A stretch of 64,000 bases of DNA from an uncultured Subdoligranulum sp. (GTDB taxonomy: Bacteria > Bacillota > Clostridia > Oscillospirales > Ruminococcaceae), in the NCBI GenBank assembly GCA_945830575.1, contig CALZZE010000014.1, positions 117 to 64,116 of the forward strand, read 5' to 3'. Of the stretch, positions 21,466-60,162 are shown one piece after another; the stretch's first letter is position 1, and every line of letters begins with the position of its first letter. The translations under genes and the position numbers were made by a program. The notes beneath the pieces were generated by a model that was not told where the DNA came from, ran no database searches, and saw nothing but the letters and a program-made list of their open reading frames with translations.

Positions 21466-21708
21466 TTACTTAATTTCCTGATCTAATGATTCAAAGACAG
21501 GGTCAGAGAAGAAGTCACAAAGTGTAATGTTCAACCCATCACACAGCTTTTTAATCGTGGTGATGGAAATTTGTCTGCGAGATGGATCCATCATACTGTA
21601 AACGGTGGAAGGTGTGACACCGGCCAGATTGGCCAGTTCATTGGGTCGGATCCCTCGTTGGTCGCATAATTGTTGAAAACGAATCGTAACGGCATCTTTT
21701 ACCATCAT
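21466..21708 (-). CDS. XRE/Cro-C1 family transcriptional regulator
   Basis: ELANLAGVTPSTVYSMM...ITTIKKLCDGLNITLCDFF; GAGGTG RBS before ATG 21708. Confidence 0.85.
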   Translation of the reverse strand: MMVKDAVTIRFQQLCDQRGIRPNELANLAGVTPSTVYSMMDPSRRQISITTIKKLCDGLNITLCDFFSDPVFESLDQEIK

Positions 21709-21793: not shown

Positions 21794-21865
21794 AAGAGCG
21801 TAATTGGAATTCTTAGTTACTTGGAAATAGTCAGGGATTATTTCTGGAACTTATGACAAAGCGGG

Positions 21866-21892
21866 TATCCCCCATTTGGATAATGGAGGATA
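21866..21892. repeat. Left inverted recombination site (IRL)
   Basis: TATCCCCCATTTGGATAATGGAGGATA; its reverse complement matches 23304-23330 at 26/27 positions; dyad arms flank an asymmetric core. Confidence 0.85.
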
Positions 21893-21927
21893 CCCGCAAA
21901 AACCGATACTGACACTATTTTTAGTCT

Positions 21928-21956
21928 ATTTTATCACACCCGCGTTGCCTTTTCAA
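21928..21956 (-). promoter_or_regulatory. Outward-facing sigma-A-type promoter inside the invertible segment
   Basis: Minus strand reads TTGAAA-17 nt-TAAAAT with an extended -10 TG. Confidence 0.7.
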
Positions 21957-22114
21957 TAAGGAATGTTGCGAAAGAGGGCAGGTTTTGCCCCAATTTGTCA
22001 CAATATACAAATCCAGTGTTTTCGTTTTCCTGAAATTCACGAATTTGTTATCGTTCTCAACCCTTTTCCAATAGGTTAAGCAGTCAATTTGCAGTCAAAA
22101 TGGAGGTAGACAAG

Positions 22115-23284
22115 ATGGCGCGACATGGAGAGAATATTCATAAACGGCAGGATGGCCGGTGGGAAGGCCGGTATATGAAAGGCAAGGACACCAAAGGGAA
22201 AACGGTATGGGGCTATGTGTATGCAAAGACCTATCCTGAGGTAAAGAAGAAACTGATACAGAAAAAAAGTGAAGAGTCTTTCTATTGCCTTAATGCAGAT
22301 GACCCCACTTTTATGGATCTGTCAGAAAACTGGCTTGGTACCATTCAGAATGGTGTAAAAGAATCTACGCTGGCGCATTATCGGTATACACTGACGAGAT
22401 ATATATTACCTGTGTTGGGATTTGAAAAAATAAAGAGGCTGACTGAATATCGGATAGAGCAGGCCTTTTTGCAAATCGTTACCCCTAACGACCAGAAACA
22501 TAAGCCTTTAGGCCATTCTCTTGCCAAGGAATGCTTGACGATTATACGGAGAATCTGTAAATACGCTTGCCACTTGAGACTGATACGGCCTTTGGAAATA
22601 GAGGTGTGTCTGCCGAAACCGATAGAGGCAAAAACCGTTCCGCTTTCCGTGGAAGAACAAAACCTCCTGAAAAGGTATGTGATGAGCAACGTAACATCGA
22701 GAAAAATCGGCTTGGTATTGACCATGCAAATGGGATTGCGCATAGGAGAGGTCTGTGGGCTTCAATGGGGCGATATCGATGTTCAGAACGGAATTCTGAC
22801 CGTAAACCGTACCGTCCAGAGGATATCCTGCGGAGAGGGACATTCCAAGGTTGTCATTCAGACGCCAAAAACCAAATCATCAACGCGGATGATCCCCATT
22901 CCGGCTTGGCTGATCCCGACGTTGAAGAACCTCCAAACAGGAAAAGAGGATGATGTGTGGTTTTTATCCGGGCGACGCGATAAACCGGTGGAGCCTCGAT
23001 GCTATCGGAAGAGCATTCATGTCTATCTCAAGGCCGCGAAGGTTCGCCAGATCCATCCCCATGCATTACGTCACACATTTGCCACCACCTGCCTTCAAGC
23101 TGGTTGTGATGTAAAGACATTGAGCCAACTCTTGGGACACTCAGACGCAGGCATTACGCTGAAACGGTATGTTCACACCGACTTTGACAGGATGCGCTGG
23201 GAAATCGCACGCATTTATGATGGCCGATGTCACACGACCTTAGGGGGTCACAAATCAGTCTGTTCGTTCGGAAATAAACGATAA
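22115..23284 (+). CDS. Tyrosine recombinase (integrase/invertase)
   Basis: N-terminal arm-binding-like KRQDGRWEGRY; GLRIGE (R), PKT (K), HALRH (HxxR), LGHS, catalytic RYVH; GGAGGT RBS. Confidence 0.92.
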   Translation: MARHGENIHKRQDGRWEGRYMKGKDTKGKTVWGYVYAKTYPEVKKKLIQKKSEESFYCLNADDPTFMDLSENWLGTIQNGVKESTLAHYRYTLTRYILPVLGFEKIKRLTEYRIEQAFLQIVTPNDQKHKPLGHSLAKECLTIIRRICKYACHLRLIRPLEIEVCLPKPIEAKTVPLSVEEQNLLKRYVMSNVTSRKIGLVLTMQMGLRIGEVCGLQWGDIDVQNGILTVNRTVQRISCGEGHSKVVIQTPKTKSSTRMIPIPAWLIPTLKNLQTGKEDDVWFLSGRRDKPVEPRCYRKSIHVYLKAAKVRQIHPHALRHTFATTCLQAGCDVKTLSQLLGHSDAGITLKRYVHTDFDRMRWEIARIYDGRCHTTLGGHKSVCSFGNKR

Positions 23285-23303
23285 GACAAAGAAAAAAATA
23301 TAA

Positions 23304-23330
23304 TATCCTCCATTATCCAAATGGAGGATA
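23304..23330. repeat. Right inverted recombination site (IRR)
   Basis: TATCCTCCATTATCCAAATGGAGGATA: perfect 10-bp arms around the 7-bp core TATCCAA, inverted relative to IRL. Confidence 0.85.
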
Positions 23331-23415
23331 CGACAGCCTGAGTGGACTTCACGGTGTCGTGGATAGAGTGTCGCAATATTGGAGACCGATACATAACGCC
23401 AAGGGGTTATGCTGC

Positions 23416-24303
23416 ATGACAGACCTTCTCGAACGGAAAAGTGTTGAGGAAATCAGGGACTCCAAAAACTGTATCTATTTGTTGGATGACGAGGATATGT
23501 TTAGTCAGCTGGGACATAAGGTGCTTCTCTCGCGAAAGGTCCCATGCTTGTTGAATGTCGCCAAGATTCGCTACAACGGACAGACTGAACTGATCTATTT
23601 GACGGAGGGACTTCAAAACTATCTTACCATCATGCCAACGCTTCCCAGAGATGGTGTCTATATGCTTTGCGCAAAAGTGATGGAATCGGTGTTGAAGGTA
23701 AAAAATCAAGGATTCCTTGCAGTGGAGAATCTTGATATCTCCATGGACAAAGTATATTTTGACCCGAAAACCTATGAAGCCTACTTGGTTTATCTGCCGT
23801 TATCCGCCGGAGAGGGTGAAAATGGGCCGCTGTTTGAAGCTGAATTGCGTCATTTGCTCTTGCAGTTTGTAAAGCAGTCCTCCACGATTATTTCCGAACA
23901 AGAGCGCTGTATTGTGGATGCGCTGACGAACGGAACAGGGGGCGGCTTGGAAGGAATCGCGAAGATATTCCAGAACACCAAGCAAAGCTCCCCTGTGCAG
24001 GAGAGGAGTCTGCAGCTGATAAGCATGAACCCCAATTTGCAGATCACCTTTGCAATGAGAGGTCAGGCCGCTACCATTGGCAGACGGAAAGGCTGTGATT
24101 TGACGTTGGATTTTTCCAATCAGATCAGTCGTCTGCATTGTACTCTGAAGAAAAAGGATGATTCTTTTTATATCAAGGACGAAGGAAGTTCTTTTGGTAC
24201 GGGATTAAATGGAAAGAAGATTCCGGCCATGAAAGAGATTCCGGTAAAGAACGGTGACGTTTTGATGTTGCCGGGAATTAAGTTCAAAATCAACATAAGG
24301 TAA
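23416..24303 (+). CDS. FHA-domain protein with N-terminal DUF6382-like domain
   Basis: C-terminal TIGR...ISRLHC...IKDEGSSFGT FHA motifs. Start is either GTG 23359 or ATG 23416. Confidence 0.8.
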   Translation: MTDLLERKSVEEIRDSKNCIYLLDDEDMFSQLGHKVLLSRKVPCLLNVAKIRYNGQTELIYLTEGLQNYLTIMPTLPRDGVYMLCAKVMESVLKVKNQGFLAVENLDISMDKVYFDPKTYEAYLVYLPLSAGEGENGPLFEAELRHLLLQFVKQSSTIISEQERCIVDALTNGTGGGLEGIAKIFQNTKQSSPVQERSLQLISMNPNLQITFAMRGQAATIGRRKGCDLTLDFSNQISRLHCTLKKKDDSFYIKDEGSSFGTGLNGKKIPAMKEIPVKNGDVLMLPGIKFKINIR

Positions 24304-25662: not shown

Positions 25663-28600
25663 ATGGATATGCAGTATAAAGCAATATTGGCAAACAAAAC
25701 GATATACAAAGAGATTCCTCTTCCTGCCAATGCGACAACGGTTTCTGTCGGAACGGCGCCAGGGGTCGATGTTCGGCTGTCCAAAAATCTGTTTTTTGAA
25801 CAGTTTGAACTTTTGTTTACCAATGAAGGCAGTGATTGGGTAGTCACTTGTTCGCCCAATGTGTATATCAGCGCGGGATCTTCCAGCAAACTGCCGCAGA
25901 AGCAGCTTGTTCACGGAGATGAATTGCAGGTCAAATACCATTCCACCGATGTAGAAATGGTATCCATGAGTATTATGGTCGACTTTGATGAGGTTGATCA
26001 GGATTTTTTCCGGGCAATCGATTTGAAGGACCATACAAAGGTGATGATTGGCGGAGCCAATCAGTGTGATATTCGGATTACTGACAAAGAAGTAGCCAAT
26101 GATCTGGTGGCCCTGACGGCACAGGGACAAGGGTGGCAGTTGGAAGAAGTCCGCTCAAATTACGGCGTCTATGTGAATGGAACCCGAATCCAAAGAAAAG
26201 CCCTCTTGCGTAATCATGACTTTTTTGCGTTGGATAAGTACAAATTCTTCGTCAGAGGGAGCAGACTGTACACTACTGAAGCGCCTGAAATTCAGGTGCA
26301 TGGCTTGGCGCAGCGTTTGGAAAAACCATCTTCCAACAGTTTGGCCTATCCAAAGTTCAACCGAACGACCCGAATGAAAACCAAACCTAATACAGAGGAA
26401 ATCACGGTTCTTGACCCTCCCGAAATGCCGCAAAAGCCGCAGGAAAGCTTGGTGGCAACGCTGCTGCCGGCATTGGCTATGCTGGTAGTTACTGTGGTCA
26501 TTCGCGGTATGATGAGCAGCACGTCAAGCTCTTTTGTGTTGCTTAGTGTCTGTACGATGGGCATCGGAATTGTGACCTCCATCGCCAATTATATCTCCAA
26601 TAAGAAAAAATATAAAAAAGAGGTGGAGGAGCGAAGAAAAAAATTTACATCATATATAGATCAGAAGAAGCAATTCATCGACACGGCCCGCCAGGAAGAA
26701 TTGCGGGACTTGGAACAGATGTATTACTCTGATATGCAGGATGCAAAGCATATTATGGAGTTTTCGGATAAGCTGTTTGACAGAACCGCCAGCGATGATG
26801 ACTTTGTGGAGGTGTACCTGGGAAAAGGAAGCAGAACATCCCTGCGTCAAATCAAGTATAAGGAGCAGGAAAAAATCGAGGTCGTGGACGATCTGGCACA
26901 AGTACCCGAAAAAATTAAAGAAGATTATAAGGAATTGGAAGGTGCGCCGGTCACGTTGGCACTTTCCAAATATGATGCGGTTGGTGTGGTAGGATCCTAT
27001 CGTCAGAACTTCCAGATGCTTAAGAATATGACGATGGATCTGGCATCCAGACATTACTACACAGATCTTCATTTGTATTATATCTGTTCTGAGGAACATG
27101 CTGCTGAAATTAGATGGGCGCGTTGGCTACCACATACCGAGAATGCTGCGCTGGGAATCCGCAATATCGTCTGTGATACAGCCAGCAGAAATTTGATTTT
27201 TGAGCAGCTATTTGTACAACTGTCGGCCGAAAAAGAACGAAATAGCAAAAATGATACTGTACAGGAGAGAAGTGTTCTCTTCGTCTTGGATGATATGGGC
27301 ATCAACCAGCACCCCATCTCCCAGTATATCAGGAATTGTAAAGAAAAAGGAGTGACATTTGTCTTTTTCAGCTCCTGCCCGGAGTACATTCCGCAAAACT
27401 GTGGTGCGCTGATCCGCATGGGTGAAAATAATGGAGAAGCGGAGCTGATCCAGAGTGATGACAGCCAGAATGTGCAAAAATTTGTTTACGATGTATTGCC
27501 GGATGCGCTGGTGGAACAGGCTTGCTTGAAATTGGCGCCGGTCTACTGCGATGAGGTGAGTCTGGAGGGAAGCCTGACCAAAAACTATAGCTTCTTCCAG
27601 ATGATGAATATTTTTGGGCCGGAAGATTTGGATTTGCAAAAGAACTGGGATTCGGCCAATATCAAAAAAACCATGCGGGCGCCGCTGGGCATCAATGCAA
27701 AGAAAGAGACTGTATATCTGGACCTGCACGAAAAAGCGCATGGCCCCCACGGTTTGGTGGCTGGCACGACAGGTTCAGGAAAATCGGAAATTTTGCAAAG
27801 CTATATTCTGTCGATGGCGATTCACTATCATCCTTATGAAGTGGGTTTCCTGATTATTGATTTCAAGGGCGGCGGTATGGCCAATCAGTTCAGGAATCTT
27901 CCCCATATGCTGGGCGCGATCACGAACATTGATGGAAAAGAAATTGACCGTTCTTTGAAGTCTATCAAGGCAGAGTTACAGAAACGCCAGCGCCTGTTTG
28001 CAGAATACGATGTAAACAAGATTGATGATTACATCGAAAAATTCAAGCAGGGGCAGACAAAAATCGCGCTGCCGCATCTGATTATCATTGTGGACGAATT
28101 TGCGGAGCTCAAAGCAGACCAGCCGGAGTTTATGAAGGAACTCATTTCCGCTGCCCGTATTGGCCGCAGTCTTGGCGTTCACCTGATACTTGCAACGCAG
28201 AAACCCTCCGGTCAGGTAAATGAGCAGATTTGGAGTAACTCGAAGTTTAAGCTTTGCTTAAAGGTTCAGAACCAGGAAGACAGCAAAGAAGTAATCAAAT
28301 CACCTCTGGCTGCAGAAATTCGTGAGCCGGGCCGTGCGTATTTGCAGGTAGGGAATAATGAGATTTTTGAGCTTTTCCAATCTGCTTATAGCGGGGGACC
28401 ATCGAAAGCTGATGAAAATGTTGCGGAGCATGAGTTTTCTCTTCAGGAATGCAACCTGTGGGGGAAACGGGATGTCATTTATCGGAAAACAAAAAATAAG
28501 ACTGGCGAAGAAGGCCGGGGTCAGACGCAGTTGGACGTGGTTGTTGGATATGTAGAAAGCTATTGCGAAACTTCCAACATACAAAAGCTGGCGAATATTT

Positions 28601-30210
28601 GTCTGCCACCTCTTCCGGAAGTGCTGCCTTATCAAATGGCGGATACAAAAGCGAAACAAAACATTGAGGTGGGCGTGGGCTTGTATGATGACCCGGACAA
28701 CCAGTATCAGGGCAAGGTAGTTCTTGATCTCACTGCGAGCAATACGATGATTATCGGTTCTTCCCAATATGGAAAAACCAATCTTCTGGAAGTTCTTCTC
28801 CGGGGATTACAGGAACGGTATACACCTCAGCAAGTGAATGTTTACATCCTGGATTTTGGCTCCATGATTCTAAAAAATTTTGAGAGATCTCAGCTTGTTG
28901 GTGGTGTGGCCTGTGCCTCTGAAGATGAGAAAGTCAAAAACCTCTTCAGACTGATCATGCGCTGCCTTGCAGAACGTAAAGAGAAACTGTCTAAGGTAGG
29001 AGTCAGTTCCTTCGCTTCTTATCTGGAAGCCGGTTATACGGATATGCCGCAGATTGTAATCATGGTCGACAATTTTGTAGGACTGAGAGAACTGTACCTG
29101 TCCGACGATGATGTCTTACTTCCGATTTGCCGGGATGGACTATCTTACGGTATCAGCGTTATTATGACAACATTGCAGAGTTCAGGCGTTGGTTATCGGT
29201 ATATGAGCAACTTCGCACAGAAAGTGGTTTTGTACTGCAATGACAGCGGGGAATACTCCTCGGTTTTCGACAGATGCCGTATGCAGCCAAGCAATGTTCC
29301 GGGACGCGGATTGATTGAATTGGATAAGACAGTTTATGAGTTCCAGTCATATTTGTGTTATGAAGCAGACAGAGAAATTGAAAGAGTCAAGGCAATCCGA
29401 GAGGAAATTGCCGGTGCAAACCGTCGTTTTGGTGAGATGAAGGCAAAACCTATTCCAGAAATTCCGACCGTTCTTGATATGGCCTATGTGCAGCAGAACT
29501 TCAATGAGCAACGAGAACCATATCGTATTCCTATTGCCATGGATTATGAATCTGTGGAATGGGTTATGCTGGATCTGCGCAGGATTTCTACAATTTGTGT
29601 CACTGGACGCGAAAGGTTTGGGAAAACCAACTTCTTGAAACTGGTGATGAATCACTTACAGAACAATCTGTTTGATGAGCCTTCAGAAGTTTTCATATTT
29701 GACGATTACCGCCGTCAGCTTGCAGATTTCACGAAATATGGCATGGTTGAAAAATATACGGTGGATCGAAGCGAATTGGATATTGTGCTGGACCAGATAG
29801 AAGCTGAATTGAAAGAACGCCAGAAAATGGTTCGGGATGGACTCGACATTCAGGATGAGCCATTGCTTCTGTGTGTGCTTCAGGATGAGGATATTCTTAC
29901 AGCGGATGGGCTTAAGAAAGCGCAGGCGGACATCATTCGGCGTATTGTAAAAAATTATGGAAAACTGAAAGTATGCTTTATCTTTGCGGAGGTGGAAAAT
30001 GCGGCTTTCGGATACAGCGCACCGGAAGGAATCAAGCTGGCAAGAGAAAGTGCCTTCACCATTTTGTTTGATGATTTGGCAAATCTCAAACTTGTGGATG
30101 CGGGGACTGCGAATATCCGCAAGTTCAAGAAACCAGTTTCGTTGGGAGATGCGTATCTGATTACAGATAAGAATGTTATCAAGCAGAAAGTAATTCATGC
30201 AGAAGAATGA
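25663..30210 (+). CDS. essC: Type VII secretion ATPase EssC
   Basis: N-terminal FHA-like region, TM hairpin, three P-loop domains (GTTGSGKS with IIVDEF, GSSQYGKT, GRERFGKT), RSLGVHLILATQKP. Confidence 0.95.
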   Translation: MDMQYKAILANKTIYKEIPLPANATTVSVGTAPGVDVRLSKNLFFEQFELLFTNEGSDWVVTCSPNVYISAGSSSKLPQKQLVHGDELQVKYHSTDVEMVSMSIMVDFDEVDQDFFRAIDLKDHTKVMIGGANQCDIRITDKEVANDLVALTAQGQGWQLEEVRSNYGVYVNGTRIQRKALLRNHDFFALDKYKFFVRGSRLYTTEAPEIQVHGLAQRLEKPSSNSLAYPKFNRTTRMKTKPNTEEITVLDPPEMPQKPQESLVATLLPALAMLVVTVVIRGMMSSTSSSFVLLSVCTMGIGIVTSIANYISNKKKYKKEVEERRKKFTSYIDQKKQFIDTARQEELRDLEQMYYSDMQDAKHIMEFSDKLFDRTASDDDFVEVYLGKGSRTSLRQIKYKEQEKIEVVDDLAQVPEKIKEDYKELEGAPVTLALSKYDAVGVVGSYRQNFQMLKNMTMDLASRHYYTDLHLYYICSEEHAAEIRWARWLPHTENAALGIRNIVCDTASRNLIFEQLFVQLSAEKERNSKNDTVQERSVLFVLDDMGINQHPISQYIRNCKEKGVTFVFFSSCPEYIPQNCGALIRMGENNGEAELIQSDDSQNVQKFVYDVLPDALVEQACLKLAPVYCDEVSLEGSLTKNYSFFQMMNIFGPEDLDLQKNWDSANIKKTMRAPLGINAKKETVYLDLHEKAHGPHGLVAGTTGSGKSEILQSYILSMAIHYHPYEVGFLIIDFKGGGMANQFRNLPHMLGAITNIDGKEIDRSLKSIKAELQKRQRLFAEYDVNKIDDYIEKFKQGQTKIALPHLIIIVDEFAELKADQPEFMKELISAARIGRSLGVHLILATQKPSGQVNEQIWSNSKFKLCLKVQNQEDSKEVIKSPLAAEIREPGRAYLQVGNNEIFELFQSAYSGGPSKADENVAEHEFSLQECNLWGKRDVIYRKTKNKTGEEGRGQTQLDVVVGYVESYCETSNIQKLANICLPPLPEVLPYQMADTKAKQNIEVGVGLYDDPDNQYQGKVVLDLTASNTMIIGSSQYGKTNLLEVLLRGLQERYTPQQVNVYILDFGSMILKNFERSQLVGGVACASEDEKVKNLFRLIMRCLAERKEKLSKVGVSSFASYLEAGYTDMPQIVIMVDNFVGLRELYLSDDDVLLPICRDGLSYGISVIMTTLQSSGVGYRYMSNFAQKVVLYCNDSGEYSSVFDRCRMQPSNVPGRGLIELDKTVYEFQSYLCYEADREIERVKAIREEIAGANRRFGEMKAKPIPEIPTVLDMAYVQQNFNEQREPYRIPIAMDYESVEWVMLDLRRISTICVTGRERFGKTNFLKLVMNHLQNNLFDEPSEVFIFDDYRRQLADFTKYGMVEKYTVDRSELDIVLDQIEAELKERQKMVRDGLDIQDEPLLLCVLQDEDILTADGLKKAQADIIRRIVKNYGKLKVCFIFAEVENAAFGYSAPEGIKLARESAFTILFDDLANLKLVDAGTANIRKFKKPVSLGDAYLITDKNVIKQKVIHAEE

Positions 30211-30221
30211 GGGTGCATGTT

Positions 30222-30542
30222 ATGGCGGACAACTCTACGGCCAGTGCTGGTGCACATGTGGATTATCTGGACAGTTCCGGCTTTGATGAAGCAATAAAAG
30301 CTTTTGAAACGGCCTGCAACAAGTACAAGGATATCAAATCGTCGGTAGAAAGAGAAACGGCATCTCTTCTTTCCGTTTGGGAAGGTGAGGGTGCAGCCCA
30401 GTTTGAAAAAGACTACAGACTGATTTATCAACAACTGGATGATATTTTGGATTTGATGTATGACCTTTATAACGGATTGATTGAGGCTCAGGCCGCCTAT
30501 CTGAAAACTGATCAGGAACTGTCCAAACAATATACTGCATAA
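30222..30542 (+). CDS. WXG100-family protein
   Basis: About 106 aa, helical, central WEG motif; follows essC. Confidence 0.85.
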   Translation: MADNSTASAGAHVDYLDSSGFDEAIKAFETACNKYKDIKSSVERETASLLSVWEGEGAAQFEKDYRLIYQQLDDILDLMYDLYNGLIEAQAAYLKTDQELSKQYTA

Positions 30543-33370: not shown

Positions 33371-34720
33371 ATGGATCAGATAGAGTGTCAGGAATATCTT
33401 ACCCGGGCACAGGTTTTGATGCAGCAGGGCCAGTATGAAGCGGCACTGGAACAGCTGGATGGTGCGGAACAAAGCAACCGGATGGAACAGGATGTTTATC
33501 TGAGCAAGGGTATTTGTTATGCAAATCTGGATCAGATTCAGCAGGCAGAGGAGCAGTTCCGGAAAGCGCTGAAACTCAATCGGAAAAATGGCCTTGCGAT
33601 GTTCCACCTTGGAAACATCTATATGATGACAGGACGCAGCCAGGATGGCCTTGAAATGTATAACAACGCCATCGGATGCGGTTACAAGGATCCACAGATT
33701 TTCTTTACCTTGGGACTTTACTTTGAAGAAGAAGATAATGTGGAGATGGCACTCCGCAATTATGCGAAAGCCTATCAGACAGAGCCGACCCGTGCGGATG
33801 CACGCATCCGCCGTATTTCCCTTTTGCTGAGAACTGGACAGCTTGAAGCCGCCTTGCAGGCGATTGACGAGATGATCGTATTTTGTCCGGATGTATTTGA
33901 AGGATATCATGCTCGTTTCATGGTCCTTATGCAGATGGGGAATCTGGAAGAGGCGGAAAAAACAATCAAAAGTGCCATGGAGATGTTTCCCAGCGATGTG
34001 GGATTTGCAACGGACTATATAAAGCTGCTGCTTGCTCAGGGAAAGTCCCAGGAGGCAACTGCCTATATCGAGGACGTACAGCAAAGGATGGAATTCAGCG
34101 ACCCGGAAAAAGCTGAATTGGAATTGGAGAAAGCGCAGATTGCCTCTGAAAAAAATGATTTGGAGGGAACGATCGCATCGCTTACGAAAGCAAAACAACT
34201 TTCCGGTAAAGAAAATGTGGAGCTGACGCAAAAAGCGGAGTTCCTTTTGGCAAACTGCTATATGGCCAAATCCCAGTGGGAACAGGCGCTTGCGGAATTA
34301 AGGCTTGTCAAAAGTGATACTTACAAAAGTGAATTCAGTGCGGCTGTTTTATATATGGAGCCGCTGGTGCTTAAGCAAATGGGCAGTCAAGAGGAGGCTG
34401 TAAAACAATATCGGGAAGCAATCAAGACACTTCGGGCTTTGTCCATGGCGAATCCGGGACAAATCGACTACACGATTTACCGCATCTTCTGCCACCGAGA
34501 TATTGGTGAAACCGAAAAGGCATTGGATTTGTGTGATTATCTGGGAAAAATTGCCGGAAACATCGCAGAGGTTCATACGGCAAGAGCAACTGTCTTACGG
34601 GTAATGGGCCGAAACGAAGAAGCAGCAGAAGAAGAAAAGATTGCAGCCCAATTAGGCGGAGTCAGTCAGGAAATCTCTGAAAAGTTGAACCAAAAACAGG
34701 CAGGGAATGAAAATGGGTAA
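33371..34720 (+). CDS. Tetratricopeptide-repeat protein
   Basis: Repeated TPR patterns (GQYEAAL, YLSKGICY, FHLGNIY, AIGCG); GAGGT RBS favours ATG 33371. Confidence 0.9.
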   Translation: MDQIECQEYLTRAQVLMQQGQYEAALEQLDGAEQSNRMEQDVYLSKGICYANLDQIQQAEEQFRKALKLNRKNGLAMFHLGNIYMMTGRSQDGLEMYNNAIGCGYKDPQIFFTLGLYFEEEDNVEMALRNYAKAYQTEPTRADARIRRISLLLRTGQLEAALQAIDEMIVFCPDVFEGYHARFMVLMQMGNLEEAEKTIKSAMEMFPSDVGFATDYIKLLLAQGKSQEATAYIEDVQQRMEFSDPEKAELELEKAQIASEKNDLEGTIASLTKAKQLSGKENVELTQKAEFLLANCYMAKSQWEQALAELRLVKSDTYKSEFSAAVLYMEPLVLKQMGSQEEAVKQYREAIKTLRALSMANPGQIDYTIYRIFCHRDIGETEKALDLCDYLGKIAGNIAEVHTARATVLRVMGRNEEAAEEEKIAAQLGGVSQEISEKLNQKQAGNENG

Positions 34721-35006
34721 CCGTCTTATTGTGAATCAGGAAGCGCTTGCGCAGGCAAGTCGTACATATCATACAGCGGCATCAGATATGACAATAGTAT
34801 GTACTGATTTGGAGAAAGCGCTTGCGGACCTGAGACAGAAATGGAAAAGCACAGGCAGTCAGGAGTTTTTCAAGGAATTCGATGACACATGGAAGACAAA
34901 CATGAGCAAGTACACTTCTGTGATAAACCATATGTCAGAGAATGTCGTGGATGCAAATCACAGGTATCAGGAAATTTTTGATGAGGCATACCGGCTACGT
35001 TTGTAA
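34707..35006 (+). CDS. WXG100-family protein
   Basis: 99 aa; LIVNQEALAQAS start; central WKSTG (variant WXG). Confidence 0.75.
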   Translation: MKMGNRLIVNQEALAQASRTYHTAASDMTIVCTDLEKALADLRQKWKSTGSQEFFKEFDDTWKTNMSKYTSVINHMSENVVDANHRYQEIFDEAYRLRL

Positions 35007-35125: not shown

Positions 35126-35425
35126 ATGGCTATGCAAATCAGAATGACTCCGGATGAGCTTCGCGCTGCTGCGGATTTTATCATGGAGCGCAAGGACGCG
35201 ATTGCTCAGGAGGTCGCTTCCTTGAAGGGAAAGATTGATGAAGTGACGGGTAATTGGGAAGGCGCTGCGCAGAGTTCCTTTATTGAAACGTTTGAATCGC
35301 AGCTTTACCCGATTCTGAATGAGACTGCTCCTCAGGTGATGGAAGGGCTGTCTGCGCAGCTCAAGGGCGGCGCGGATGCCATCGAGCAGGCTGACGAAGA
35401 GGTTGCGAAGGCCTTCCGTGGTTAA
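35126..35425 (+). CDS. esxA: WXG100 protein, EsxA-like
   Basis: QIRMTPDELRAAA...NWEGAAQSSF...ADAIEQADEEVA; GGAGGT RBS; followed by a terminator. Confidence 0.88.
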   Translation: MAMQIRMTPDELRAAADFIMERKDAIAQEVASLKGKIDEVTGNWEGAAQSSFIETFESQLYPILNETAPQVMEGLSAQLKGGADAIEQADEEVAKAFRG

Positions 35426-48853: not shown

Positions 48854-49702
48854 TTATGTCCCGTGCTTCCTGTCAAAAGCCAGTATCTCTCTTGCGTGTA
48901 GTTCTTCCAAAGCAGGGATATCCTCATCGTCGGCAAAGTCGGCCGAATCGGCCACACCCAGAACCACTCCTAAGATCTTGACGTTGTCATCCTCGTTCTT
49001 TTCGCCATATGGCAGATTTGGGTTGATTGAGTGCAGCTTGTGGTGAATCATGCGCTTGACAACCGCACCGTCTGCTGTAGAGCAAACAACAATATCTCCA
49101 TCATCAGCCGAAGTGGCGTACCGAATGTACAGGAGATCGCCATTGTAATACATGGGTTCCATGCTGGCTCCAGATACACGAACAATCGCGTCCGCATGCC
49201 GGTTTCTGTTTGTTTTGCGAACAAAACGATACTCAGGTTCTACATCACCAAAGGGACAACCAGCTCCGGCGGCTACTGGAGTTGGCTCCAGCTCAATGAG
49301 GATGTAATCGGCACGCAAAGCTGTATCGTGAGCGTTTGTTTCCTCTTCCAGCAAGGTTGCAATCATTTTGCTTGCAATGTTTTGGCCGGAGGCACTGAGC
49401 TTCCGGTATTGGTTTACCAACTGTTTTTCCTTTCCGGAAAGAGCATTGGTGTCCTGAATTCCAAAAAGTTCAGACAAAGGAATCCCTAATACTTCACAAA
49501 GCCCGCCCAGGGTATCAAAATCCGGGCGGGATTTGTTTTTCTCCCAACTCGCAATGGCAGCTTGAGTCAGCTGGAACATCTCTCCGAGTTCACGCTGTGT
49601 CAAGTTGTTGTTTTCCCTGTATTTTCTAAGAGTTTCACCGAAGGACGGTCTGCTGCTTCGATTGCCGATGGCAGTCTGATTGGCGTTCTGATACGTTGTC
49701 AT
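48854..49702 (-). CDS. XRE-HTH / S24 peptidase (LexA/CI-like) repressor
   Basis: HTH LTQRELGEMFQLTQAAIASWE; AAG cleavage site; SGASMEP (Ser) and VVKRM (Lys). Confidence 0.9.
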   Translation of the reverse strand: MTTYQNANQTAIGNRSSRPSFGETLRKYRENNNLTQRELGEMFQLTQAAIASWEKNKSRPDFDTLGGLCEVLGIPLSELFGIQDTNALSGKEKQLVNQYRKLSASGQNIASKMIATLLEEETNAHDTALRADYILIELEPTPVAAGAGCPFGDVEPEYRFVRKTNRNRHADAIVRVSGASMEPMYYNGDLLYIRYATSADDGDIVVCSTADGAVVKRMIHHKLHSINPNLPYGEKNEDDNVKILGVVLGVADSADFADDEDIPALEELHAREILAFDRKHGT

Positions 49703-58839: not shown

Positions 58840-60162
58840 GTGAAAAGAACAACCAGACGCCTTTTGGCGGTATTTCTGTCCCTGTTTCTGGCGGCAGCCA
58901 TGCCGGTTCAGGCATTCGCCATGCAGATATTTGTGAAGACTCAGACGGGCAAGACCATTACTATCGAAGTGGAGCCGACAGATTCCATAGGAGCCATCAA
59001 AGGAAAAATTTTTGAAAAAGAGGGAATTCTGCCGGAAAACCAACTGCTGATTTTCAACGCAGAGCAGCTGGATGAAAGAAAGACGCTGTCGGATTATAAC
59101 ATTCAAAAGGAATCCACGCTTCATTTGGAGCTGCAGACGACCGACACGGATGTGCGGGAGATCACTATAACGGGTGTCTACCAGGCCGGCACAACAGCGG
59201 ACGAGAAAATCTCCGTGGATATTGTGTGGGATGCGATGGAGTTCACCTACGCCGCCCCATCGCAGGGGACATGGAACCCCGCTGCCCACGCCTATGAAGG
59301 TGCGACAGAAGGCGGCTGGTCGGACAACACCCCCGCCATCACCGTCACCAATCATTCCAACGTTGCGGTGAACGCCACTTTGGCCTTCACCGCTGCTGTT
59401 GACGGCGTAGTCGGTGCCTTCACCGAAGCCAGCGGCACTGAAAATGACAACATTCTGAACCTTGCCACCGCCGAGGGGACGGAGGTTGCCAATGCTCCCA
59501 CCGCAACTGCAAACTTCGGCATCAGCGGTACGGCAATCGACGCGACCAAGACGCTCGGCACCATCACCGTGACCATCAAAAATGTCATCGACACCTTTGC
59601 AGAGCTGCAGGCGGCGGTCAACGCCGGCGGCACCGTCAAGCTGGGCGGGAATATCACTTTAGGGGATGAAACCCTTGTTGTGGGCAGCAGCGTCCCTGTG
59701 ATCCTTGACCTGAACGGATACACGCTGACTTCCAATAGCAATGCGCATATCCAAGTTCAGCCGGGTGTCATCTGCACCGTCAAGAACGGCACCGTTACGA
59801 ACACTTACAGCGATGGTGAAGCAGTACATAACTTCGGTACCCTTACCGTTCAAAACTGCACGCTGAATGCGAATAACTACTTTCCTTTGTATAACTGTTG
59901 TACTGCCACCGTGACGGACAGCACGCTGAACGGAAAAATCATCGGAAATTCGATTTGCAACGATCATGCGTACTCCGATACTGTCACCCTGACCCTCAGC
60001 GGAACCGTGCGTATGGATGGCGGTATTTATAACAATTACAACACATCCGTCGTTACCGTCCTCCCCGGTACCTACAACTTTGCCCCCGCTTCCTATGTGG
60101 ATGCCAACACCCACACCGTCACCGACAACGGCAACGGCACATGGACGGTCGCTGCGAAATAA
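58840..60162 (+). CDS. Secreted protein: signal peptide + eukaryote-like ubiquitin + shared domain + beta-helix-like tail
   Basis: [19 protein letters not shown]...[17 protein letters not shown] at 58921-59133, right after AFA; remainder paralogous to 60193-61314. Confidence 0.9.

Follow-up and report, generated by a model that had tools for sequence, protein, structure and literature searches.

A self-contained invertible promoter cassette that very probably switches a type VII secretion cluster in an uncultured Subdoligranulum

The window analysed here, a stretch of 64,000 nucleotides from an uncultured Subdoligranulum sp. (GenBank assembly GCA_945830575.1, contig CALZZE010000014.1), contains a segment of 1465 bp (21866-23330; G+C content (GC) 45%) that is bracketed by two inverted recombination sites and carries the gene of a tyrosine recombinase together with a promoter pointing outward past the left-hand site. 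The segment lies between a gene for a small XRE-family regulator and a 25-kb cluster of genes for a type VII secretion system (T7SS), the first of which encodes a protein with DUF6382 and FHA domains; the coordinates of these and related features are collected in Table 1. Inversion of the segment in nature is seen in natural contig variants. The element is read here, with considerable confidence, as a self-contained invertible promoter cassette, in which the enclosed recombinase would flip the segment so that the outward promoter (Pout) faces either the XRE gene (OFF) or the T7SSe-type secretion cluster (ON).

Table 1. Positions of the cassette features, the flanking genes and the second cassette; positions are those of the window unless a contig is named.
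Feature	Position	Strand	Composition or basis
Left-hand recombination site (IRL)	21866-21892		arm TATCCCCCAT 21866-21875, core TTGGATA 21876-21882, arm ATGGAGGATA 21883-21892
Right-hand recombination site (IRR)	23304-23330		arm TATCCTCCAT, core TATCCAA 23314-23320, arm ATGGAGGATA
Outward promoter Pout	21956 to 21928	-	TTGAAA-17-TG-n-TAAAAT; 10/12 plus extended -10; top match in region
Promoter-like sequence outside IRL, pointing into segment	21765-21793	+	TTGCGT-17-TATAAT; read from sequence, function inferred
Tyrosine recombinase, 389 amino acids, integrase-type, N-terminal SAM-like domain	22115-23284	+	Pfam PF00589 4.8e-26, PF14659 1e-7
XRE-family helix-turn-helix regulator, 80 amino acids	21466-21708	-	Pfam HTH_26 1.5e-8; 80 amino acids in relatives' gene calls
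Co-directional T7SS cluster, 25 kb	23416-48070	+	
First cluster gene, DUF6382 + FHA protein, TseJ-like, 295 amino acids	23416-24303	+	Pfam FHA 4.4e-17, DUF6382 1.4e-6; gene calls of 295 amino acids
YukD ubiquitin-fold protein	in cluster	+	PF08817 1.8e-6
EssC	25663-30210	+	TIGR03928 1184 bits against cutoff 778; N-terminal FHA
WXG100 protein	30207-30542	+	PF06013 7.4e-9
Two open reading frames of 99 amino acids with WXG-like motifs	34707-35006, 35126-35425		
Second cassette, same genome	C22:27214-28684 (= L005:2215-3685)		sites 27214-27240 and 28658-28684; genome-wide pattern search

An inverted-repeat search returned arms at 21865-21892 and 23304-23331, each of 28 nt, which are complementary at 27/28 positions (96%) and separated by 1411 nt. 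Both ends show the same layout, with a 7-bp core between two 10-bp arms. The core of IRL is the exact reverse complement of that of IRR, which puts the sites in inverted orientation, and the two sites differ at one arm position only (C at 21871 versus T). When the pattern ATCCNCCAT-N7-ATGGNGGAT was searched for with at most two mismatches, IRL and IRR were the only two matches in the window, where 0.03 would be expected by chance; none of 100 shuffles gave two matches. The repeat search and the pattern statistics bear out the original observation, made from the letters of this stretch, that 27-bp inverted copies with an arm-core-arm structure lie at both ends of the segment, which is bracketed by inverted repeats in the manner of an inverton.

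The recombinase was looked up in a public assembly collection, and a locus was scored as ON where Pout faces the FHA gene and as OFF where it faces the XRE gene. The window itself is OFF. In L033, whose recombinase is 96% identical, the locus is ON: the promoter end of the segment adjoins the flank with the secretion genes, and the 3' end of the recombinase gene adjoins the XRE flank. One identical recombinase, P0122, with flanks 95-97% identical to those of the window, was found in both states, ON in seven contigs (L034, L036-L040, L043) and OFF in three (L035, L041, L042); with grouped similar places added (5 and 7, respectively), the split is about 12 ON to 10 OFF, on the assumption that grouped places share the orientation of their representative place. 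Two further alleles are ON (L144-L147), L146 having the same TraG-HTH_36-XRE context as the window, and one allele is OFF (L143). The OFF junctions read CGGG-site-CCCG and ATAA-site-CGAT, and the ON junctions read ATCG-site-CCCG and ATAA-site-CCCG, which are exact reciprocal products; the form predicted for the ON junction of the window strain agrees with that of the observed ones. In ON and OFF contigs alike, each flank keeps its outer arm and its core direction. Both orientations thus occur between the same flanks, the second property by which an inverton is recognised. It had been proposed that the segment inverts and that its promoter then points into the T7SS cluster, and that related genomes be compared for the flipped state: this comparison gave both states with reciprocal junctions, and the flipped state is present in L033, in the P0122 contigs and in L144-L147, while transcription of the cluster from it is predicted.

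For the window strain, three short Logan contigs, each matching the window at 100% identity, are informative. L051 corresponds to 21872-23324 and L050 to 21872-23333, each being reported from 3 samples, and L052 ends at 23324. Because the only arm mismatch is at 21871, ON and OFF junctions left by a crossover in the core first differ at 21871 and 23325; L050 and L051 start one base inside the C/T mismatch, and L051 and L052 stop a single base short of 23325, where the ON and OFF junctions part. An assembly graph with k=31 branches at these places only if both junction types are among the reads, which is indirect evidence that both orientations coexist within samples of the window strain. Strain mixture was tried as a source of the contig breaks and set aside: the nearest other lineage has the window base at 23325 and is 3-6% different inside the segment. 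A scan of metagenome contigs for the right junction gave 0 matches. As a separate observation, many family members are known only as contigs of about 1.4-1.5 kb, which is the length of the segment (also L050, L051, L141, L142 and L148), and L148 is a segment-only contig of 1453 bp from a sister allele. Segment-length contigs fit assembly graphs that are broken at the sites by the presence of both orientations.

A second cassette was located in the same genome, on C22. It has the same arms as the window cassette and the core AGGGAAA/TTTCCCT, its recombinase is a paralogue 62% identical to that of the window, and an outward TTGAAA-17-TATAAT promoter lies just inside its left site. At 22 bp to the right of the C22 site begins a helicase gene with ResIII and five HA domains, followed by sugar-nucleotide and polysaccharide genes. 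Contigs that all encode the recombinase P0007, which shares 97% identity with the C22 copy, show this locus in both states as well: L137 is ON, L142 terminates at a junction of the ON type, and L133-L136, L138 and L139 are OFF. At the ON junction, ATGGAGGATA stands in place of the outer arm ATGGAAGATA, which locates the exchange between the arms.

The -10 end of Pout lies 35 bp inside IRL, and in the orientation of the window the promoter faces the XRE gene. When ten Faecalibacterium-type cassettes were aligned, no non-coding columns outside the site were better conserved than the -35 and the extended -10 of Pout. The strong outward minus-strand promoter originally described inside IRL is accordingly found to be the best-scoring in the region and conserved in the family, and its activity is predicted: consensus and conservation point to an active promoter of the sigma-70 type, which would be the main driver of the secretion cluster. 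The statement that no clear promoter separates IRR from the first T7SS gene holds for the interval itself, where a promoter scan found none scoring at least 9/12 up to the ATG at 23416, and is qualified by a conserved plus-strand promoter-like sequence outside IRL that points into the segment, so that the cluster is not necessarily without other transcriptional input. This sequence overlaps the palindrome TGCGTgtACGCA, a candidate XRE operator, and both of its hexamers are kept in L024 despite a diverged spacer. In the OFF state it could supply transcripts of the recombinase gene and perhaps a low level of read-through into the cluster. Inside the secretion cluster no plus-strand promoter scores above 10/12, the best (10/12) lying within a coding region, and terminator-like sites are no commoner there than in shuffles.

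In the OFF state, the Pout transcript has a 16-bp hairpin (-28.5 kcal/mol) followed by UUUGU, and in the ON state its hairpin is shorter (-18.6 kcal/mol) and has no U-run after it. UUAUAUUUUUUUC follows the XRE-side site once the segment is ON, so that a transcript from the promoter outside IRL would run into the site hairpin and then UUAUAUUUUUUUC. The idea that the sites double as orientation-dependent terminators, with the A-run in IRR giving a hairpin and U-run toward the XRE side once flipped, was examined and dropped as a general feature, since it is not conserved in the family; it is treated as a local possibility only.

The recombinase most likely starts at the ATG at 22115 and not at 22100, because GGAGG precedes 22115 by 8 nt and the alignment with relatives begins at this ATG. 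When 20 family sequences were aligned, the catalytic residues R209, K252, H316, R319, H342 and Y352 did not vary. The Phage_integrase match in Pfam agrees with the earlier statement that a tyrosine recombinase gene is enclosed by the sites, and the recombinase domains that Pfam finds in the segment are of the tyrosine type only, with no serine recombinase (resolvase/invertase) domain. The earlier mention of FimB/E-type invertases as enzymes that flip such sites is qualified: the closest solved structure by sequence is Tn1549 Int (6EMY, E 5e-17; 6EN0 is similar, E about 5e-17), and against the NCBIfam tyrosine-type DNA invertase models NF007371 and NF007370 the protein scores 34.9 and 31.2 bits, where the cutoffs are 222 and 221. 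These low scores, together with the extra N-terminal domain, show that the enzyme, an integrase-type recombinase, is not a member of the FimB/E family. Judged from the arrangement of the locus, the recombinase inside the segment is most likely the enzyme that flips it. A search of a plasmid collection gave no match; a family-level search of whole genomes gave only integrases of 35-40% identity, with no copy in the single same-genus genome covered. A scan of genome contigs with the single recombinase protein gave no matches, and the scan with an alignment recovered relatives.

The proposed mechanism is that the enclosed recombinase would cut and rejoin within the identical 7-bp cores and thereby flip the whole segment, including its own gene. 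In the OFF state, transcription from Pout would begin near 21921 and run leftward toward the XRE gene, and the cluster would be without a promoter of its own; in the ON state, Pout would lie about 150 nt upstream of the first secretion gene and drive the cluster, its transcript crossing the right-hand site and reaching 23416 after a leader of about 144 nt. The ON contigs show this distance of about 150 nt between Pout and the first secretion gene, and no terminator intervenes. As far as the sequence can tell, the cassette very probably switches the T7SS cluster on and off. Several observations weigh against this interpretation. With the exact recombinase allele of the window, 6/6 long contigs are OFF (L044-L049), and the ON state of this allele is seen only through assembly break points. 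The ten-cassette alignment contains no conserved promoter for the recombinase gene. There is no plus-strand terminator after IRR, so the transcript from outside IRL might run into the cluster and make the OFF state leaky, and the OFF-state hairpin followed by UUUGU may attenuate the Pout transcript before it reaches the XRE gene.

The alternative that survives best accepts the inversion as real and proposes that it mainly regulates the XRE repressor, the recombinase or both, the cluster being transcribed mostly by read-through from the XRE-controlled promoter outside the segment or from an unrecognised promoter. Such a regulator toggle or self-limiting recombinase circuit would agree with the direction of Pout in the window, which faces the XRE gene, with the conserved TTGCGT-17-TATAAT sequence and its palindromic candidate operator pointing into the segment, with the lack of a plus-strand terminator after IRR, and with the XRE genes beside about 14 of the surveyed cassettes; in the ON state, moreover, UUAUAUUUUUUUC after the XRE-side site would stop the outside promoter. 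However, many cassettes of the family have no XRE neighbour and have surface or secretion genes on one side, with an outward promoter in 49/61, the A-run or terminator feature at IRR is not conserved in the family, and the ON contigs bring Pout to the start of the secretion genes without an intervening terminator, so this alternative is considered unlikely. It is still harder to believe that the two orientations are assembly artefacts of inverted repeats without any biological inversion. Inverted repeats can mislead assemblers, and the evidence does come from contigs, but the shared repeat of 21-28 nt is far shorter than the k-mers used (k141 in MEGAHIT, scaffolds from one other pipeline, k31 in Logan), each orientation recurs, with clean reciprocal junctions, on several long contigs that differ in sample and assembler, the second locus on C22 shows the same pattern, and with a shared stretch of 21 nt the k=31 branching at 21872/23324 needs both junction types in the reads. 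Least probable of all is an insertion sequence (IS)-like mobile element inserted independently in either orientation without a regulatory role, for although cassettes with the same arms occur at C14, at C22 and in the conjugative element of L023-L032, the GC of the segment is 45% in a genome of 59.7%, and the cassette sits in a conjugative island, the ON and OFF copies occupy exactly one position, the outer arm and core orientation are fixed to the flanks as in reciprocal recombination and not independent insertion, one identical recombinase is found in both states, both states occur within a single sample, the outward promoter is conserved, and no target-site duplication was found at the cassette.

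The XRE gene on the left most likely starts at 21708, the longest open reading frame reaching 21738. On the right, the cluster begins with the genes for the DUF6382-FHA protein, a ParA-like ATPase, YukD, EssC, WXG100, unknown proteins and a TPR protein, continues with the two WXG-like open reading frames of 99 amino acids, a second DUF6382-FHA protein, a PP2C phosphatase, a Ser/Thr kinase and a membrane protein, and ends with a surface protein of 2615 amino acids with Ig (Big_2) repeats. The two WXG-like frames fill an apparent gap, so the secretion cluster is contiguous over its whole length. EssC above its cutoff and the presence of WXG100 and YukD-like proteins identify a T7SS of the Firmicutes type, related to T7SSb. 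The TseJ to which the first gene product is likened is described in PMC11217815, and the component set corresponds to the T7SSe, or the similar T7SSj, of Garrett et al. (microLife 2024, PMC11217815), with which the cluster shares EssC with an N-terminal FHA domain, WXG100, YukD-like and DUF6382-FHA proteins, a phosphatase of the PPM type, a Ser/Thr kinase in the membrane and a surface protein of giant size; the accessory set of T7SSe consists of TseJ (DUF6382-FHA), TseF (PPM phosphatase), TseD (membrane kinase), TseI (giant envelope protein), TseH and TseK, and the candidates for it seen here are DUF6382-FHA (two copies), PP2C, Pkinase and the 2615-amino-acid Big_2 protein. TseH and TseK were not identified in the cluster, which appears to be of the T7SSe type, the distinction between e and j being made by gene content only. 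In contrast to the present locus, PMC11217815 makes no mention of recombinases or phase variation. In L143:1501-4164, from a sister allele (P0123, four 66-kb contigs), the switch directly abuts the PP2C and kinase genes and the EssC/WXG100 part is missing, an arrangement that suggests a deletion variant or modular cargo.

The host genome is 2.88 Mb with 59.7% GC, and the window forms an island of 50.5% GC. A conjugation module occupies window positions 1-21000, upstream of the switch, with genes for TrbL, a VirB4-like ATPase, an M23 peptidase, a MobL relaxase, a primase, ArdA and the TraG/VirD4 coupling protein. Beyond the secretion cluster there is a LexA-like S24 repressor (48854-49702), and at 58840-60162 a protein of 440 amino acids contains a ubiquitin-family domain (PF00240, 2.5e-21, residues 30-99), which is unusual for bacteria; an adjoining open reading frame of 379 amino acids has no Pfam match.

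A total of 3299 proteins match the recombinase at E <= 1e-40. Relatives at 55-65% identity are all from Faecalibacterium, and those at 33-40% identity come from Lachnospiraceae, Oscillospiraceae, Ruminococcus, Butyricicoccus, Blautia, Dorea and others. Where enough flank was available, 66 of 72 related loci have a 21-mer inverted repeat with at most three mismatches at equivalent positions around the recombinase gene, about 200-250 bp upstream of its start and about 70-130 bp past its stop. For 61 of these 66 loci the interval from the left site to the gene was carried into a promoter scan, in which an outward promoter of at least 10/12 was present in 49/61 cassettes and one on the other strand in 7/61, the shuffled mean being 8.5; the outward promoter mostly ends 20-45 bp from the left site. 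Partner cores differ at 2 of 315 positions and arms at 68 of 810, a comparison that is somewhat biased by the seeding of the repeats. There are 39 distinct cores among 45 cassettes, none of them palindromic, and cores change together in both partner sites, as with TTAGATA in L033 and AGGAAAA in L136. Tyrosine recombinases require identity in the overlap region; with private cores, the two cassettes of the genome would therefore be kept from recombining with each other.

The neighbours of the cassettes include XRE regulators (about 14), FHA or DUF6382-FHA proteins (10), HA-domain helicases, CpsB/CapC, BspA-type leucine-rich-repeat proteins and TadZ-like proteins. A further cassette, at L024:3195-6606 (also L023 and L025-L032), has the core TTGGATA and a recombinase 87% identical to that of the window and is carried by a related conjugative element. 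It lies between a homologous XRE gene and genes for zinc-ribbon/DUF2752 membrane proteins, its promoter faces the latter, and its orientation is opposite to that of the window relative to the XRE gene. The same core beside XRE with other genes suggests that a module of XRE gene plus cassette accompanies different cargo. We lean towards the view that these loci belong to a very large class of portable flip-switches of about 1.4 kb in gut and rumen Clostridia, with orthogonal private cores, which would give heritable ON/OFF states to T7SS, capsule or polysaccharide, Tad pili, BspA-type adhesins and other surface loci, which may travel with conjugative elements, which would make a T7SS phase-variable in an abundant gut commensal lineage, and of which no description was found.

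Several known systems resemble the cassette in part. The Salmonella H segment (hixL-hin-promoter-hixR, fljBA) and its relatives Gin, Cin and Pin share with it the recombinase inside the segment, a promoter at the end, a read-out in one orientation, a length of about 1 kb and short inverted sites; however, Hin belongs to the serine recombinases and depends on an enhancer bound by Fis, whereas here there is a tyrosine recombinase with arm-core-arm sites and a 7-bp overlap region. In the fimS/FimB/FimE and MrpI switches, a tyrosine recombinase inverts a promoter segment and turns a surface structure ON or OFF. The fimS element is 314 bp and the recombinase genes lie outside it; in the window, by contrast, the recombinase lies inside the segment and is not of the FimB/E family. 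The Tn1549 and Tn916 integrases provide the nearest structures (6EMY/6EN0), have the same domain layout, and have relatives that are common on conjugative elements of Clostridia, but their ends are directly oriented and they carry out excision and integration, while here inverted sites 1.4 kb apart flank only the recombinase gene and the product is an inversion in place.

Closer by host are the invertible promoters of Clostridia. It has been reported for a defined gut community that the Clostridia inverton group 139 is linked to tyrosine recombinase/integrase group 35 within 5 kb, and shifts in the orientation of group 139 were observed in culture and in mice (Microbiome 2025;13:71, PMC11892184). 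Together with the RecV switches of Clostridioides difficile, group 139 shares with the cassette the Clostridia host, inverted repeats of about 25 bp and an integrase-type tyrosine recombinase. The two quoted examples of group 139 are about 250 bp, so that a recombinase gene would not fit inside (PMC11892184); compared by description only, these examples differ from the present cassette, whose recombinase lies within a segment of 1.46 kb, and no link to a T7SS is reported for group 139. A literature search in which few subscription journals were covered gave no paper linking type VII secretion to DNA inversion and none on invertons with the recombinase inside in Clostridia or Faecalibacterium. 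Invertible promoters themselves are known; what appears to be new here is one with an integrase-type recombinase inside the switch and a T7SS as its probable target.

The T7SSs of Firmicutes deliver toxins against competing bacteria and are usually treated as transcriptionally regulated. If the present interpretation is true, a heritable and reversible switch would leave only part of the population armed at any time, and an abundant gut commensal lineage would have to be modelled differently as regards competition, cost and immune exposure. Because both states are present in metagenome contigs, the ON fraction is measurable in existing data sets and could be compared with diet, inflammation and phage load. 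The segment is longer than typical invertons, and the family may have been missed for this reason. The survey of the family suggests a generic modular switch of Clostridia, composed of a recombinase, a promoter and privately addressed sites, and switches of this kind, orthogonal and self-contained, could also be put to use in the genetic manipulation of Clostridia.

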